Positions 1-5,134 of a DNA stretch of 5,134 nucleotides are shown here, piece after piece. This DNA comes from a virus (taxonomy: Duplodnaviria; Heunggongvirae; Uroviricota; Caudoviricetes). Location: the IMG/VR virus record IMGVR_UViG_2541047722_000007; one strand, 5' to 3'. The notes below the pieces were generated by a model. It was not told the origin of the DNA, made no database searches, and was given only the letters and a program-made list of their open reading frames with translations. Made by a program: the position numbers and the translations under genes. Numbering within the stretch: position 1 is the first letter of the stretch; each line of letters begins with the position of its first letter.

Positions 1-179
1 AAGCGGAGGTAATACACCGTAAGAGCTGGAAAAACCGTGCAGAAGTGGAACTGGCCACACTCACGTGGGTGGACTGGTATAACAATCGACGATTGCTGGA
101 AAGGCTGGGCCATACTCCTCCGGCAGAAGCAGAAAAAGCTTATTATGCTTCCATCGGAAACGATGATCTGGCAGCCTGA
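1..179 (+). CDS. insF: IS3 transposase OrfB (InsF), C-terminal fragment; 5' end lies outside the window
   Basis: Open frame from the window edge translating ...AEVIHRKSWKNRAEVELATLTWVDWYNNRRLLERLGHTPPAEAEKAYYASIGNDDLAA*, stop TGA at 177-179. Recognised from memory as the IS3 InsF C-terminus. Confidence 0.85.
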   Translation, partial: AEVIHRKSWKNRAEVELATLTWVDWYNNRRLLERLGHTPPAEAEKAYYASIGNDDLAA

Positions 180-182
180 GTT

Positions 183-221
183 CACAGATAAAACACTCTC
201 CAGGAAACCCGGGGCGGTTCA
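183..221. repeat. IS3 terminal inverted repeat (IRR, ~39 bp)
   Basis: CACAGATAAAACACTCTCCAGGAAACCCGGGGCGGTTCA; its reverse complement TGAACCGCCCCGGGTTTCC... begins the second copy at 5033. Confidence 0.7.
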
Positions 222-309
222 GTGGATGCAAAAGGCGTAAGCCCAATATTTGATACCAGACCTCTCCGCGCCGCCATGATTGTCTTTCTCCTGATGCAGG
301 AGGCCAATA

Positions 310-504
310 ATGCTTAGCCCATCTCAATCCCTTCAATACCTGAAAGAAAGCATAGAGCGGGCTTCAATGTGCACAGAGTGGATTCTATCTAGGTTTAGCG
401 CATACAGAAGATTGCCGGTAAAGGGCATGCCAAGCAAGTCGATGCTGCATATGCAAAAGAATGCGCGCTGGAAGGTATGGCGAGAACACAGGTTATGTGG
501 CTGA
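310..504 (+). CDS. hypothetical 64-aa ORF; possibly the 5' part of a frameshifted ybcO-like gene
   Basis: ATG at 310 preceded by a strong Shine-Dalgarno AGGAGG (297-302, 7-nt spacer); stop TGA 502-504. No recognisable homology by eye; overlaps the frame-0 remnant at 399-527. Confidence 0.3.
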
Positions 505-527
505 AAGAGGGGGTTATTAAGGCGTGA
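399..527 (+). pseudogene. 3' remnant of the gene that normally precedes rusA (ybcO-like); no start codon in frame
   Basis: 43-codon open stretch ...[24 protein letters not shown] with stop TGA 525-527 overlapping the rusA GTG start (GTGA), the overlap I recall for ybcO-rusA. In-frame stops at 390-392 and 396-398 close it upstream. Homology is from memory only. Confidence 0.3.
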
Positions 528-886
528 ATACCTACAGCATCACATTACCCTGGCCTCCGAGCAATAATCGCTATTACCGCCATAATCGCGGGCGCACGCA
601 CGTCAGCGCAGAGGGGCAGGCATACCGCGATAACGTCGCCCGAATCATTAAAAACGCAATGCTGGATATCGGCCTGGCTATGCCTGTGAAAATCCGCATT
701 GAGTGCCACATGCCGGATCGCCGTCGCCGTGACCTGGATAATCTGCAAAAAGCCGCTTTTGACGCACTCACTAAAGCAGGTTTCTGGCTGGATGATGCTC
801 AGGTCGTTGATTACCGCGTTGTGAAGATGCCTGTTACCAAAGGTGGGAGGCTGGAACTGACCATCACCGAAATGGGGAATGAATGA
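524..886 (+). CDS. rusA: RusA, crossover junction endodeoxyribonuclease (Holliday-junction resolvase) of DLP12-type prophage
   Basis: 120-aa product [42 protein letters not shown]... matches RusA as I recall it. GTG start at 524; only a weak/distant SD (GAGG ~13 nt upstream). Confidence 0.93.
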
Positions 887-1023
887 TGTTTGAGTTTAAT
901 ATGGCAGAACTTCTTCGCCACCGCTGGGGGCGTCTGCGCTTATATCGTTTCCTCGGTTCTGTTTTGACCGATTACCGAATACTGAAGAATTACGCCAAAA
1001 CCCTGACAGGAACAGGAGTATGA
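883..1023 (+). CDS. ylcG: YlcG-like small protein (46 aa), DLP12-type prophage
   Basis: ATGATG start overlapping the rusA stop (ATGA); translation [46 protein letters not shown], stop 1021-1023. Below the 60-aa cutoff of the ORF track; recognised from memory. Confidence 0.65.
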
Positions 1024-1108
1024 AGTCAGAGATAACAATCAACTAATACTGTTTTGTTGATTTTTGCTTGTAATTGGCGTTCTGGTCTGATTTTTGTGGA
1101 GTAAGTTG

Positions 1109-1492
1109 ATGCGTGATATTCAGATGGTTCTTGAGCGTTGGGGTGCGTGGGCGGCTAATAATCATGAAGATGTGACCTGGTCGTCCATTGCCGCCGGTTT
1201 TAAGGGATTAATTCCTTCAAAAGTAAAATCTCGCCCGCAATGTTGTGACGATGACGCGATGATCATTTGCGGGTGCATGGCCCGTCTGAAAAAGAACAAC
1301 AGCGATTTACACGATTTATTAGTAGATTATTATGTATGTGGTATGACATTCATGTCACTGGCAAGTAAGCATTGCTGCTCGGATGGTTATATCGGGAAAA
1401 GGTTACAGAAGGCTGAGGGCATAATTGAAGGGATGTTAATGGCATTAGATATCCGGTTAGATATGGATATCGTTGCTAATAATTCTAATTGA
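1109..1492 (+). CDS. quuD: Late-gene antiterminator Q (phage 82 / DLP12 QuuD type), 127 aa
   Basis: [49 protein letters not shown]... ; ATG at 1109 with GGAG SD 7-8 nt upstream. The TTG at 1094 used by the ORF track is probably a spurious extension. Confidence 0.9.
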
Positions 1493-1629
1493 TATGCAAT
1501 TGTTTACTAAAAGTTATTAAAAATGGGGCGTGGAAACGCCCCCAAAATAAAGGGTAATATATAACAGAAGGTTTATATAGTAAGAAGCAAGGTAGTGCTT
1601 CTAAAGGAAGTGGCTTGAGGGCTCCACTT
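1493..1629 (+). promoter_or_regulatory. Putative late promoter (PR') / Q-utilisation region immediately downstream of Q
   Basis: Placed by position only, by analogy with lambdoid phages where PR' and qut follow Q. AT-rich; I could not pin down convincing -35/-10 hexamers. Confidence 0.3.
1525..1542. other. GC-rich hairpin GGGGCG-TGGAAA-CGCCCC; candidate minus-strand terminator or pause/structure element
   Basis: 6-bp GC stem with 6-nt loop. On the minus strand it is followed by a U-rich tract (ATTTTTAATAACTTTT), which could end the porin transcript. Confidence 0.3.
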
Positions 1630-1669
1630 ATATGTTGCGGAGGCAAAGCCTCCCGCAACATATCTTTTT
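1630..1669 (+). terminator. Rho-independent terminator (tR'-like), plus strand
   Basis: ATATGTTGCGGAGGC-AAA-GCCTCCCGCAACATAT: ~15-bp stem with one bulge, followed by CTTTTT. The minus-strand reading has no U tract, so it looks unidirectional. Confidence 0.7.
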
Positions 1670-1680
1670 CGTAAGTCAGA

Positions 1681-2763
1681 TTAGAACTGATAAACCAGAC
1701 CTACAGCGACGATGTCGTCGGTATCAATACCAGCTGTTTTGGTAAACTTACTATCGTCAATTAAGTTGATTTTGTAATCAACAAAAGTGGACATGTTTTT
1801 ATTAAAGTAGTAAGTAGCACCGACATCGACATACTTGACTAAGTCTCGGTCACCATGAACACCAAGGTCTTTACCTTTTGACTGAAGGTAAGCAACAGAT
1901 GGACGCAGACCGAAGTCAAACTGATATTGTGCTACTGCTTCAAAGTTTTGTGCTTTGTTTGCAATATGGTTATTACCAAAAACGGTCATATTCTGAGTTT
2001 CAGAATATGTGGTAGCCAGATAGATATTGTTCGCATCATATTTCAGGCCTGCAGCCCATACTTCCGCATTTTTGCCGGAGGCATTGAATTTGCTCTTACC
2101 ATAGGCGACCTGACCGTCAGTGCGATCTGATTTAGCATAGGTTGCACCCACGCCGAATCCTTCATACTCATAAGTAGTGGAGAAACCGAAACCATCACCA
2201 TTGGCTTCAGTTACGTCAGTGCGGTCATTTTTACCCTGATACTGAGCAGCAAAGTTCAGGCCATCGACCAGACCAAAGAAGTCGTTGTTACGATAAGTTG
2301 CAACACCAGTAGTGCGACCAGTCATGAACACATCTGTTTGGGTCCAGGTATCACCACCGAATTCTGGCAGAACGTCAGTCCACGCACCGATGTCGTATGC
2401 TACACCGTAGTTACGGCCGTAATCGATTGAGCCGTAATCACCAAATTTCAGGCCTGCAAATGCAAGACGGGTTTTGTCTTTGGAAGAACCTTGAGATTCA
2501 GCACGGTTGCCTTTGAATTCATATTCCCACTGACCGAAACCAGTCAGTTGATCGTTGATTTGGGTTTCACCTTTGAAGCCAAGACGGGCATAAGTAGTAT
2601 CACCATCATCTGCATCATTAGAGGAGAAGTAGTGCTTGGCATTAACTTTCCCGTATAGATCCAGCTTGTTACTGTCTTTATTATAAATTTCAGCTGCCTG
2701 AGCAGACATCGCCATCAGTACTGATGCAGCTACAGCAGAAATTGCCACTGTTAATTTTTTCAT
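1681..2763 (-). CDS. nmpC: Outer-membrane porin, NmpC/OmpD/Lc type (OmpC/OmpF family), intact, 360 aa
   Basis: [23 protein letters not shown] signal peptide, then [17 protein letters not shown]...; PEFGGD loop-3 motif; C-terminal ...VGLVYQF beta-barrel signature. ATG at 2763 (the ORF track's upstream start at 2823 adds 20 unlikely residues). Confidence 0.93.
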
Positions 2764-2974
2764 TGTACGCCCTTTTTTTGAACTATTATTAAAAAATGAT
2801 GTCACTGCGCGATAAATATTCATCTAATCAATGTGATTATTTCAAGATGTAAGTTTTAGTTTCTCATTTAATTTGTGAAGTAGATCTCTATTTTTATCTG
2901 AACCTTTTCTATCTAATCCTATTCATGGCTCTTGTCTGAACAAAAATAAATCTATTAGCTAATTTATATTAATG

Positions 2975-2992
2975 GCACTTATTTATAAGTGC
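2975..2992. repeat. Inverted repeat GCACTTAT-TT-ATAAGTGC (8 bp arms, 2-bp spacer); candidate protein-binding site
   Basis: Read directly from the sequence; ~210 bp upstream of the porin start codon. Confidence 0.4.
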
Positions 2993-3131
2993 TCTATAAT
3001 TCTTTAGCTTAATTTAAACAAACTAAAAATAACATCGGAAATTATTAACTGGTTATTTGTTGAAGTTTTCTTATGCATTTGTGGTGGTGTTTTGAACACT
3101 CGGTGGCATTCTCACAAATATCATTTAGTAG

Positions 3132-3145
3132 TTTACGTACGTAAA
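3132..3145. repeat. Perfect 14-bp palindrome TTTACGTACGTAAA; candidate operator
   Basis: Exact self-complementarity read from the sequence; overlaps the candidate -35 of the promoter-like element below. Confidence 0.45.
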
Positions 3146-3159
3146 AAATTGGTTATGCT
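3132..3159 (+). promoter_or_regulatory. Candidate sigma70-type promoter (-35 TTTACG, 16-bp spacer, -10 TATGCT with an upstream TGG)
   Basis: Hexamers found by eye; a start near 3166 would give a ~55-nt transcript ending at the 3190-3222 terminator. Confidence 0.3.
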
Positions 3160-3189
3160 GTTAAGAGTGGTTACTTCGTCACACAGCTT

Positions 3190-3222
3190 AAACCCGCCGT
3201 CGAGCGGGTTTTTCCATTTTTT
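3190..3222 (+). terminator. Rho-independent terminator, plus strand, ~130 bp upstream of the holin
   Basis: AAACCCGC-CGTCGA-GCGGGTTT (8-bp stem) followed by TTTTTCCATTTTTT. No plus-strand gene lies upstream of it. Confidence 0.65.
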
Positions 3223-3351
3223 GAGTCTCGATATTAGCTGATAACCCAATACCTGAGTTATTCACTGACTCCGAATCTGTTACGTTTCTGCCTTTATTGC
3301 GATACGTAGTATCCCCTTAATTTACACCCGCTTTGTCTGCGAGGTGGGGTT

Positions 3352-3567
3352 ATGAAATCCATGGATAAGTTAACAACGGGTGTCGCCTATGGTACCTCAG
3401 CAGGTAGTGCCGGGTACTGGTTTTTACAGTTGCTCGATAAAGTCACGCCCTCACAGTGGGCGGCAATAGGTGTGCTGGGTAGCCTGGTATTTGGCCTGCT
3501 GACGTACCTGACAAACCTTTATTTCAAGATTAAAGAAGATAAGCGCAAGGCTGCGAGAGGTGAATAA
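3352..3567 (+). CDS. essD: Class II holin / pinholin (phage 21 S21-type; DLP12 EssD), 71 aa, with dual-start motif
   Basis: [71 protein letters not shown]; Met1 and Met4 give the antiholin/holin pair; two predicted TMDs; SD GAGGTGGGG upstream. Confidence 0.92.
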
Positions 3568-4064
3568 TGCCTCCATCATTACGAAAAGCCGTTGCTGCTG
3601 CTATTGGTGGCGGAGCAATTGCTATAGCATCAGTGTTAATCACTGGCCCAAGTGGTAACGATGGTCTGGAAGGTGTCAGCTACATACCATACAAAGATAT
3701 TGTTGGTGTATGGACTGTATGTCACGGGCATACAGGAAAAGACATCATGCTCGGTAAAACGTATACCAAAGCAGAATGCAAAGCCCTCCTGAATAAAGAC
3801 CTTGCCACGGTCGCCAGACAAATTAACCCGTACATCAAAGTCGATATACCGGAAACAATGCGCGGCGCTCTTTACTCATTCGTTTACAACGTGGGTGCTG
3901 GCAATTTCAGAACATCGACGCTTCTTCGCAAAATAAACCAGGGCGATATCAAAGGCGCATGTGATCAGCTACGTCGCTGGACATATGCTGGCGGTAAGCA
4001 ATGGAAAGGTCTCATGACTCGTCGTGAGATTGAGCGTGAAATCTGTTTGTGGGGTCAGCAATGA
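3567..4064 (+). CDS. rrrD: SAR (signal-anchor-release) endolysin, lysozyme R21 type (DLP12 RrrD), 165 aa
   Basis: N-terminal Gly/Ala-rich SAR domain [20 protein letters not shown]; E35, D44 and T50 present at the positions of the R21 catalytic triad; ATG overlaps the holin stop (TAATG). Confidence 0.95.
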
Positions 4065-4522
4065 ACAGAGTAACCGCGATTATCTCCGCTCTGGTTATCT
4101 GCATCATCGTCTGCCTGTCATGGGCTGTTAATCATTACCGTGATAACGCCATTACCTACAAAGCCCAGCGCGACAAAAATGCCAGAGAACTGACGCTGGC
4201 GAACGCGGTAATTACTGACATACAGATGCGTCAGCGTGATGTTGCTGCGCTCGATGCAAAATACACGAAGGAGTTAGCTGATGCGAAAGCTGAAAATGAT
4301 GCTCTGCGTGATGATGTTGCCGCTGGTCGTCGTCGGTTGCACATCAAAGCAGTCTGTCAGTCAGTGCGTGAAGCCACCACCGCCTCCGGCGTGGATAATG
4401 CAGCCTCCCCCCGACTGGCAGACACCGCTGAACGGGATTATTTCACCCTCAGAGAGAGGCTGATCACTATGCAAAAACAACTGGAAGGAACCCAGAAGTA
4501 TATTAATGAGCAGTGCAGATAG
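4061..4522 (+). CDS. rzpD: Spanin inner-membrane subunit Rz (i-spanin; DLP12 RzpD), 153 aa
   Basis: [24 protein letters not shown]-terminal TMD followed by a charged, coiled-coil-like periplasmic domain; ATG at 4061 overlaps the endolysin stop (ATGA). The GTG at 4049 in the ORF track is probably an extension. Confidence 0.9.
4281..4463 (+). CDS. rzoD: Spanin outer-membrane lipoprotein Rz1 (o-spanin; DLP12 RzoD), 60 aa, fully embedded in Rz in the +1 frame
   Basis: [20 protein letters not shown] (lipobox ending in Cys) followed by a proline-rich mature region (PPPPP, PPP); AAGGAG SD 8 nt upstream of the ATG. Confidence 0.85.
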
Positions 4523-4526
4523 AGCT

Positions 4527-4542
4527 GCCCATATCGATGGGC
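4527..4542. other. Short hairpin GCCCAT-ATCG-ATGGGC between the convergent Rz and bor stops; weak bidirectional terminator candidate
   Basis: 6-bp stem, 4-nt loop, no strong U tract on either side. Confidence 0.25.
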
Positions 4543-4553
4543 AACTCATGCAA

Positions 4554-4847
4554 TTATTGTGAGCAATACACACGCGCTTCCAGCGGAGTATAAATGCCTA
4601 AAGTAATAAAACCGAGCAATCCATTTACGAATGTTTGCTGGGTTTCTGTTTTAACAACATTTTCTGCACCACCACAAATTTTTGCTGCATCGACAGTTTT
4701 CTTCTGCCCAATTCCCGAAACGAAGAAATGATGGGTGATGGTTTCCTTTGGTGTTACTGCTGTAGGTTTGTTTCCAACAGTAAACGTCTGTTGAGCACAT
4801 CCTGTAATAAGCATTGCCAGAGCGGCAGAAAACAACATTTTTTTCAT
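4554..4847 (-). CDS. borD: Bor lipoprotein (serum-resistance moron of lambdoid phages; DLP12 BorD), 97 aa
   Basis: MKKMLFSAALAMLITGCAQQTFTV... lipobox LITGC; C-terminal ...GIYTPLEARVYCSQ; ATG at 4847 with AGGA SD. The ORF track's start at 4895 is a 16-codon extension. Confidence 0.92.
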   Translation of the reverse strand: MKKMLFSAALAMLITGCAQQTFTVGNKPTAVTPKETITHHFFVSGIGQKKTVDAAKICGGAENVVKTETQQTFVNGLLGFITLGIYTPLEARVYCSQ

Positions 4848-5032
4848 CTTATTATCCTGCATTGTTAAAAACGGCAGAATCCTATGTGACAACAATTAAA
4901 CGATAGTTAAATGGATTGATGAAAATTAAAACTACACAGGTGGGCTCAGACTATTGGAGGAAGTTGGGGACACTCAGAATCCTGTGGAATGAAATAAACC
5001 GGTCTATCCGTCCATTACCCTTTTAGCTGCGC

Positions 5033-5134
5033 TGAACCGCCCCGGGTTTCCTGGAGAGTGTTTTATCTGTGAACTCAGGCTGCCAGATCATCGTTTCCGA
5101 TGGAAGCATAATAAGCTTTTTCTGCTTCTGCCGG
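5033..5134 (-). mobile_element. IS3 right-hand end, partial, inverted relative to the copy at 1-221; element continues beyond the 3' window edge
   Basis: 5033-5134 is the exact reverse complement of 120-221 (102 bp); starts TGAACCGCCCCGGG at 5033. Confidence 0.85.
5075..5134 (-). CDS. insF: IS3 transposase OrfB (InsF), C-terminal fragment (19 codons plus stop); 5' end outside the window
   Basis: Reverse complement encodes ...PAEAEKAYYASIGNDDLAA*, identical to the left-copy terminus. Confidence 0.8.
   Translation of the reverse strand, partial: PAEAEKAYYASIGNDDLAA

Follow-up and report, generated by a model that had tools for sequence, protein, structure and literature searches.

The window analysed here, a 5,134-nt stretch of DNA, carries two inverted ends of one insertion sequence (IS) around 4.8 kb of prophage genes, and the question that it raises is whether the IS copies and their cargo form a unit that moves a porin and the serum-survival gene iss together, or whether the IS copies have reworked a prophage in place. 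A mobile unit would give iss and the porin a route out of prophages, and the evidence here speaks against it. We consider it very probable that the window is a draft contig cut inside two inverted IS629/IS1203-type copies in a decaying lambdoid prophage, reflecting IS-driven erosion and not a mobile unit.

Contig edges and identity of the insertion sequence

In the draft E. coli genome GCA_000456885.1, the window corresponds exactly to the contig that two N-gaps delimit in scaffold KE699351.1, and because both gaps sit within IS copies, the window's edges are assembly breaks. The N-runs measure 430 bp (left) and 1390 bp (right), and the far sides of the gaps carry IS positions 1-354 and 1-219, respectively, leaving 735 bp and 989 bp of IS missing, a mismatch of 300-400 bp with the gap estimates; the pairing of the inner with the outer junction of each IS in the source is given by the scaffolding alone. 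The absence of the usual lambdoid neighbours from the window, which the initial annotation had taken as a sign of rearrangement, therefore carries no information. A contig ending in repeats can mimic a mobile element, and this window is an example.

Positions 120-221 are the exact reverse complement of positions 5033-5134, as had been claimed (102/102 nt, far beyond chance), and the complementarity ends at 221/222 and 5032/5033; what looks like a continuation as far as 235/5019 is noise. It is the end of the window at 5134 that cuts the repeat to 102 nt; in full it spans the whole 1.3-kb IS. Both arms are the IS end downstream of the transposase gene, and this end faces the block in both copies, so the transposase-distal orientation proposed earlier stands, while the attribution to IS3 gives way to an element of the IS629/IS1203 type. 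Specifically, the element is 1310 bp long (three identical copies in FY26), has 5′-TG...CA-3′ ends that both read TGAACCGCCCCGGG (the right terminal inverted repeat of the left copy ends ...GGGGCGGTTCA at 221), and encodes a DDE transposase of the IS3 family, with rve_2/rve_3 matching the fragment in the window. In its full copies, PGAP marks a ‘programmed frameshift’ and an AL1L pseudoknot over two overlapping frames. The element is 96.3% (96.26%) identical, full length and ungapped, to a copy carrying the PGAP label ‘IS3-like element IS1203 family’, and its place in the IS629/IS1203 isoform group is defined by the length of 1310 bp and identity of at least ~95% at the nucleotide level to a named member, here the PGAP-annotated O111 copy. 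IS1203 is an isoform of IS629, for which target duplications of 3-4 bp are reported (PMC3271280); for the element here we observed GCGC at the right IS and, as controls, 3-bp duplications at simple insertions of the IS with 0 mismatches in CFT073 (GGT) and strain 51489 (GAC). With IS629/IS1203/IS3411 of E. coli O157:H7, O111 and Shigella it thus shares the 1310-bp length, two overlapping frames with a programmed frameshift, 5′-TGAACCGCCCCGGG...CA-3′ ends and 3-4 bp duplications, as well as a frequent association with prophages and deletions (PMC3271280); it is ~4% diverged from the O111 comparison copy. IS3 itself was rejected: K-12 IS3C, which likewise lies inside a DLP12-type prophage, shares the family, a frameshifted DDE transposase and TG...CA ends, but it is 1258 bp long, gave no blastn or megablast match to the 1310-bp element, has an OrfB only 27% identical, and differs in its terminal repeats (TGATCTTACCCAG... 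/ TGATCCTACCCAC...).

The block as a segment of a lambdoid prophage

The cargo listed by the initial annotation (rusA, Q, porin, lysis cassette and bor) was confirmed gene by gene (Table 1).

Table 1. Features of the 5,134-nt window
Feature	Position	Strand	Basis and remarks
Left IS end	1-221	+	Element positions 1090-1310 (100% identical to the 1310-bp element); N-gap directly upstream of position 1
OrfB C-terminus	3-179 (stop 177-179)	+	Pfam rve_2/rve_3 match
ninX 3′ remnant	222-317	+	Last 31 codons and TAG; joint with left IS at 221/222
DUF1364 (ybcO-like) remnant	438-527	+	PGAP pseudogene; fragment already in IS-free prophages
rusA, Holliday-junction resolvase	524-886	+	PF05866, 6.9e-23; 120/120 identical to K-12 RusA
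ylcG, small nin-region gene	883-1023	+	44/46 identical to K-12 YlcG
quuD, late-gene antiterminator Q	1109-1492	+	PF06530, 6.7e-54; 122/127 identical to K-12 QuuD
Porin, NmpC/Lc type, prophage-borne, intact	1681-2763	-	PF00267, 1.9e-151; 316/346 identical to K-12 nmpC fragment
Promoter-like site (2972-3000), then hairpin and T-tract (3190-3211)	2972-3211	+	Consensus scan
essD, phage-21-type holin	3352-3567	+	PF04971, 2e-35; 71/71 identical to K-12 EssD
rrrD, endolysin (lysozyme)	3567-4064	+	PF00959; 163/165 identical to K-12 RrrD
rzpD (Rz spanin)	4061-4522	+	PF03245; 144/153 identical to K-12
rzoD (Rz1), embedded in rzpD	4281-4463	+	59/60 identical to K-12
iss/bor, serum-survival lipoprotein	4554-4847	-	PF06291; WP_001298464.1 (Iss); 89/97 identical to BorD, 95/97 to plasmid Iss
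GCGC, inner copy of right-IS target duplication	5029-5032		Native single GCGC at L005 18808-18811
Right IS end	5033-5134	-	Element positions 1209-1310, second inverted copy of the IS; 5134 is an assembly-gap edge

Q, holin, endolysin, Rz with embedded Rz1 and bor follow one another in the order of a lambdoid late-control and lysis module of the DLP12/phage-21 type, and the promoter-like site and hairpin upstream of the lysis genes are likely a late promoter and terminator resembling PR′/tR′. Similarity to K-12 DLP12 begins at 438, from where gene order and orientation are alike (rusA-ylcG-quuD-nmpC-essD-rrrD-rzpD/rzoD-borD), nucleotide identity is 97.4% over 438-1722 and 91.1% over 1756-4901, and the RusA and EssD proteins are identical. 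The two prophages differ in that the one here lies at icd and DLP12 at argU, IS5 disrupts K-12 nmpC but the porin here is intact, the lipoprotein here is the Iss allele, and an almost complete series of morphogenesis genes follows here beyond the right IS. PGAP labels the porin ‘OmpC’. In this prophage remnant, which has lost its repressor, the left IS is oriented so that it reads toward rusA and Q.

The interior of the window (222-5032) matches IS-free lambdoid prophages at icd collinearly and with 100% identity, and dozens of IS-free genomes contain it unbroken at that identity; its gene order is that of the IS-free prophage of the avian pathogenic E. coli (APEC) strain IMT5155, it matches FY26, NCTC11151 and EC21GDE043 exactly, and 1,348 (~1,350) complete E. 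coli genomes contain the block at a coverage of at least 80%. This native position and order argue against the proposal that two IS copies and 4.8 kb of cargo form a composite (compound) transposon, moved or able to move the porin and iss together. Identical inverted copies of one IS do flank intact cargo, each outer end is a left terminal repeat ending 5′-TG, and compound transposons of copy-out-paste-in IS elements exist (bioRxiv 10.1101/2023.06.07.543989). However, the cargo is not foreign to its surroundings and is not found in several contexts, the outer flanks share no common duplication (ATA vs GCG; …AATA vs GCGC…, the left outer side reading ...GGCAATA and the right outer side GCGCTGTA...), and the right IS has a duplication of its own. 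The bracketed block was found on none of 72,556 plasmids, and plasmid iss regions continue past the GCGC site with no junction common with the window. As to identical junctions at 221/222 and 5032/5033 in other genomes, the left one occurred in 0 of 5,426 complete E. coli genomes, the right one only in five complete genomes, all related and all with it at the same prophage position, and neither was found in species-representative or metagenome contigs. We regard a composite transposon as extremely improbable. An inverted IS629 pair acting as a translocatable or invertible cassette, taking the porin and iss to a plasmid, say, and, separately, activation of rusA and Q by the left IS reading toward them, are very improbable suggestions. 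IS2 and IS10 insertions switch on rusA in K-12.

The right and left copies

A simple insertion placed the right IS between iss and TonB-like/terminase genes, with an intact 4-bp target duplication (...AGCT GCGC-IS-GCGC TGTATCG); GCGC occurs only once at this point of the native sequence and stands on both sides of the IS in FY26, EC21GDE043 and the source scaffold. It is thus an independent insertion in contiguous prophage DNA. Two such insertions, each with its own duplication, had been named as the outcome that would speak against a mobile or rearranged unit; this describes the right copy but not the left one, which is a rearrangement joint. Specifically, the left IS of the source scaffold is flanked by a truncated integrase gene on the outside and by a truncated ninX on the inside, with no target duplication (…GGCAATA-IS-GTGGATG…), and these flanks lie 15,332 bp apart in IS-free IMT5155, a distance that includes a strain-specific 2.4-kb IS66. 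An IS without a duplication between flanks that are non-adjacent in an IS-free relative is characteristic of an IS-mediated deletion joint, an assignment that for this copy depends on the scaffold link. The earlier suggestion that the block is a product of IS-mediated deletion is supported to this extent, with a deletion of ~13-15 kb of the early region indicated by the comparison.

The outer (integrase) junction of the left IS is identical to that of IS-A in FY26. On the inner side, where the native ninX sequence reads ...GAATGGTGTGTGGATG, FY26 and NCTC11151 read IS-GTGTGTGGATG and the window reads IS-GTGGATG, a difference of 4 bp. Because of this difference, and because the window's junction is present in no other genome, a common origin of the left joint with that of FY26 and NCTC11151 is something that we infer. 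The 4 bp lost are bracketed by GTG microhomologies right at the IS end. No genome was found with the reciprocal junction of ninX with the IS left end, so an ancestral simple insertion in ninX is undocumented.

Rearrangements in relatives and the origin of the left joint

The related genomes carry 14-28 IS-end matches each, against a median of 3, and they display different recombination products at this locus. FY26 is arranged int′-IS-sieB...O′-IS-ninX′, with deletions of 5,395 and 2,788 bp, and EC21GDE043 is arranged int′-IS-O, with a 12,779-bp deletion; the gene O junctions of these two are 2 bp apart without overlap, and are therefore not two sides of one insertion. In NCTC11151 the flanks (the duplication halves) are swapped, which proves a 13-kb inversion between inverted IS copies.

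The layout of FY26 bears directly on how the left gap of the source is filled, as the source might likewise have two direct left IS copies with the 4.7-kb sieB-to-O′ segment between them, a contig skipped by the scaffolder, so that O and not integrase would lie on the outer side. FY26 and NCTC11151, the closest complete relatives, both have this layout, with an integrase junction identical to that of the source and with ninX joined to the IS 4 bp away from the window's junction, and the linkage in the source is scaffolding across a repeat. This arrangement would nevertheless need ~6.7 kb, against a gap estimate of 430 bp and the 735 bp that a single IS needs, and the scaffold link requires read pairs joining unique integrase to unique ninX sequence. 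We therefore consider it unlikely, and one IS, rather than two, probably fills the gap.

NCTC11151 likewise bears on the claim that the 4.8-kb block is perhaps inverted. Identical inverted 1.3-kb repeats are good substrates for recombination, and NCTC11151 has such an inversion, between its integrase-side and iss-side copies, with the halves of one duplication split onto two inverted IS copies. In the source scaffold, by contrast, both GCGC halves border the right IS and the order of the outer flanks is the native one, and the block is inverted in 0 of 5 complete relatives; a block that is currently inverted, or that switches orientation through its inverted IS copies, is accordingly highly unlikely.

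Returning to erosion of a resident prophage, the contig is a stretch (nin region, Q, porin, lysis genes and iss) native to a lambdoid, DLP12-like prophage adjoining icd, in a strain from an extra-intestinal/avian pathogenic lineage in which the IS629/IS1203-type element multiplied. The right copy would have arisen from one insertion by copy-out-paste-in transposition with its 4-bp GCGC duplication, and then been inherited vertically. The left copy is a deletion joint linking the truncated integrase gene to the ninX tail, with xis, red, N, cI, cro, cII, O, P, ren, ninB and neighbours (~13-15 kb) lost. Its most likely origin is homologous recombination, the partners being IS copies in direct orientation at separate insertion points in the prophage, and a small loss of 4 bp at a GTGTGTG run would then have followed. 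Substrates for such recombination are plentiful, as simple insertions of the same IS are documented in the region (CFT073, 51489).

Alternatively, the left joint could stem from a one-ended, transposase-linked (possibly IEE-assisted) deletion running outward from a resident IS, with the 4-bp difference as a further small one. The missing reciprocal junction of a ninX insertion is consistent with this, as are several end points where the same side of the IS meets flanking sequence (O at L005 11211; ninX at 13894, 13997 and 14001) and the 4-bp loss between GTG microhomologies, and both IS629-associated deletions and microhomology-based models have been described (PMC3271280; bioRxiv 10.1101/2023.06.07.543989). 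Copy-out-paste-in elements are, however, not expected to make adjacent deletions alone (bioRxiv 10.1101/2023.06.07.543989), and the independent simple insertions in CFT073 and 51489 also argue against it; we regard a one-ended deletion as possible but doubtful.

The locus is of a kind that is already known, and the finding has little importance beyond bookkeeping, although it is a well-controlled example of how one multiplying IS erodes and reshuffles a prophage, with porin, lysis and serum-survival genes left intact. In O157:H7, 21 of 47 IS629 sites keep their target duplication (PMC3271280). Like the IS629-mediated deletions and inversions in O157:H7 prophages, the locus and its relatives combine IS copies that lack duplications and have flanks lying apart in IS-free relatives with duplication halves exchanged by inversion, and they differ only in lineage (B2-type ExPEC/APEC) and in the particular junctions.

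Inverted IS ends and the edges of the window

The two arms at 120-221 and 5033-5134 match as reverse complements over 102/102 nt, as the initial annotation had claimed, and they cease to be complementary at 221/222 and 5032/5033. A reading frame (3-179) running into the left arm matches the integrase-core families rve_2 and rve_3, so both arms represent the IS end downstream of the transposase gene, and in both this transposase-distal end is directed into the block. The gene content described at that stage (rusA, Q, a porin, lysis genes and bor) likewise holds, and an Rfam search found no RNA families in the window. A 64-codon open frame at 310-504, which covers the end of ninX and a DUF1364 remnant, lacks a Pfam match and probably does not represent a gene.

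Features of the window, with strand and remarks where recorded
Feature	Position	Strand	Remark
rusA	524-886		
ylcG	883-1023		
Q/quuD	1109-1492		
Strong hairpin	1525-1542		quuD end to porin gene end
Strong hairpin	1631-1661		31-nt palindrome; quuD end to porin gene end
Porin	1681-2763	minus	
Promoter-like site	2972-3000	plus	ATGGCA-17-TATAAT; consensus scan
GC hairpin and T-tract	3190-3211	plus	~190 nt after promoter-like site
Holin	3352-3567		
Lysozyme	3567-4064		
Rz	4061-4522		
Rz1	4281-4463		within Rz
bor/iss	4554-4847	minus	

The name IS3 originally given to the element proved wrong. Strain FY26 carries three copies that are identical for precisely 1310 bp, with complete divergence on either side; both termini read TGAACCGCCCCGGG. 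When a true IS3, the 1258-bp IS3C of K-12, was used for comparison, the 1310-bp element gave no blastn match and its OrfB was only 27% identical to that of K-12 IS3; the element is 96.3% identical, at full length and ungapped, to a copy annotated by PGAP as 'IS3-like element IS1203 family'. Taken together, these two comparisons make it a member of the IS3 family, not IS3. IS1203 and IS3411 are among the isoforms of IS629 (PMC3271280).

The window matches scaffold KE699351.1 (GCA_000456885.1) exactly between N-runs of 430 and 1390 bp, with IS positions 1-354 and 1-219 present beyond the gaps; it is a single contig whose edges are assembly breaks within a repeat. IS position 1090 is also where contigs of eight or more other draft assemblies start, which marks the window edge as technical: assemblers break systematically at this point, and the edge is not a biological boundary. 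Such contigs start 221 nt from the IS629 right end, often directly after an N-gap (extracted loci L007-L009 and L012-L015, gene starts). Because the window is cut at assembly gaps, the absence of neighboring prophage genes within it, from which a rearranged or mobile unit had been argued, is uninformative and means nothing in itself.

Native prophage position of the block

Along the scaffold, icd is followed by a truncated integrase, an IS (+), the window, an IS (-), the TonB-like gene, and the small and large terminase, and the IS-free prophage of APEC strain IMT5155 carries the same genes in the same order from ninX to the TonB-like gene. The interior (222-5032) is matched exactly in FY26, NCTC11151 and EC21GDE043 and is found unbroken, at 100% identity, in dozens of genomes lacking the IS; at ≥80% coverage the block is present in 1,348 of 5,426 complete E. 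coli genomes. Relative to the rusA-to-borD part of K-12 DLP12 the block is 91–97% identical, with RusA and EssD identical in protein sequence, and its Iss matches BorD at 89/97 residues and a plasmid Iss at 95/97. The DLP12 homology begins at window 438, placing a mosaic joint near this position.

The proposal that the two IS copies form a composite-transposon-like unit able to move the porin and the serum-resistance lipoprotein together is not supported: the cargo is native to its prophage position, the outer ends of the IS-bracketed block share no common duplication, and the bracketed block occurs in none of 72,556 plasmids. The window is ordinary IS-driven prophage erosion and reshuffling, viewed via a contig that ends in repeats. 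A plasmid link via ColV-type iss was also considered. In the ColV-type plasmid pEco_M21170_137 (L021 4001-6670), iss lies near an IS1203 copy. Identity to the prophage in this iss region is 87.6%, starting at Rz and ending ~95 bp beyond the GCGC target site of the right IS; the IS1203 copy follows 540 bp further on, in the opposite orientation, and no window junctions are shared. This link is rejected, since the homology passes the GCGC site and the IS is 540 bp off in the other orientation.

A simple insertion on the right and a deletion joint on the left

Looking for target duplications at each IS gave different answers for the two copies. The native sequence at the right site reads ...TTTTAGCT GCGC TGTATCG..., with a single GCGC, and the IS found there in the source scaffold, in FY26 and in EC21GDE043 is flanked by GCGC on both sides, which identifies a simple insertion that duplicated 4 bp of target. 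IS629 has been reported to duplicate 3–4 bp of target, and in O157:H7 the duplication is kept at 21/47 IS629 sites only (PMC3271280). In two controls the same IS occurs with 0 mismatches and a 3-bp duplication, between ren and ninB in CFT073 (L017 1912-3221, GGT) and in ninX in strain 51489 (L020 2791-4100, GAC). Among complete E. coli genomes the exact right junction is found in five related genomes only (EC21GDE043, FY26, APEC E12053, BEN5202 and NCTC11151), in all five at the same prophage position, and it had 0 matches in metagenome and species-representative contigs.

The left IS has no target duplication in the source scaffold. Its outer flank is an integrase fragment (...TTTCGGCAATA adjoining the IS), the same junction as that of the FY26 copy IS-A, and its inner flank is ninX (IS followed by GTGGATG). 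These flank points lie 15,332 bp apart in IMT5155, counting a strain-private 2.4-kb IS66, so the left IS marks where the early region was deleted. The IS-mediated deletion suggested by the initial annotation is thus borne out on the left side, where a duplication is absent and the flanks are non-adjacent in IMT5155, and not at the right IS.

No exact match to the left junction was found: its 44-mer had 0 matches in species-representative genomes and metagenome contigs, and a 200-nt query against the 5,426 complete E. coli genomes returned only FY26 and NCTC11151, both 4 bp different, and two other ninX insertions. The ninX joint of the window sits 4 bp further in than the FY26 and NCTC11151 joint, the native sequence being GGTGTGTGGATG, with GTGTGTGG following the IS in FY26 and GTGG in the window. 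At 215-230 the joint lacks GTGT, reading GTGGATG after the IS versus GTGTGTGGATG in FY26 and NCTC11151. The simplest reading of these sequences is that a small deletion occurred between GTG microhomologies; the difference may also be an independent event, or may be an assembly error. The 31-residue product of the ninX remnant, sought for sister contigs, returned no record.

Related genomes carry other deletions at the same element. FY26 has the order int'-IS-sieB...O'-IS-ninX', with deletions of 5,395 and 2,788 bp, and EC21GDE043 has int'-IS-O at a different integrase position, with a deletion of 12,779 bp. A single gene O insertion behind both the FY26 and EC21GDE043 junctions is excluded, as a 2-bp gap separates their end points, which have no common duplication. 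The left joint could have arisen by recombination between two copies, and a one-ended, transposition-linked deletion (background in bioRxiv 10.1101/2023.06.07.543989) is kept as a rival mechanism on account of the unmatched ninX joint, the gene O gap and a missing reciprocal junction: a constructed query for the junction reciprocal to the window's, as a hypothetical simple insertion at its ninX site would leave it, was found in no genome.

Rearrangements in relatives and predicted regulatory signals

In BEN5202 (L004 7913-9221) the IS lies 107 bp further up in ninX and its outer flank is unrelated, which indicates a larger chromosomal rearrangement. In NCTC11151 the TonB-side flank with GCGC is on the sieB-adjacent IS and the integrase lies beyond the iss-adjacent IS, a pattern that is the hallmark of an inversion through recombination of inverted copies. 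The inversion once put forward for the window block is seen only in this relative, where a longer stretch, running from the IS on the sieB side to the one on the iss side, has been flipped with respect to the chromosome (L002 906-2215, 13037-15502). At the iss end of that stretch a complete copy adjoins the integrase fragment and is itself abutted by a truncated IS (positions 155-1310); like the source scaffold's left IS, the complete copy has G124. Other lineages (CFT073, strain 51489 and BEN5202) show independent insertions of the same IS into the nin region of the prophage. The right-junction genomes have 14–28 IS-end matches each, against a median of 3 among E. coli genomes with any match, suggesting that the IS629-type element has expanded in their lineage, an O2:K1-like APEC/ExPEC group.

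Within 177-524, the left IS transposase frame is directed toward rusA, ~300 bp downstream. No terminator-like site was found between this frame and rusA, and a consensus scan of the IS end that faces rusA gave no promoter directed outward. The source scaffold has lost the phage repressor region. In K-12, silent rusA is activated by upstream IS2 or IS10 insertions (PMC1636454), an arrangement that the left IS upstream of rusA may recall by analogy.

The promoter-like site and the hairpin with T-tract, the latter ~140 bp ahead of the holin gene, look like a predicted lambdoid late promoter and terminator, in which case the antisense porin gene would separate Q from its likely target. Judged by sequence, the two strong hairpins between the quuD and porin gene ends are likely terminators of these convergent genes.
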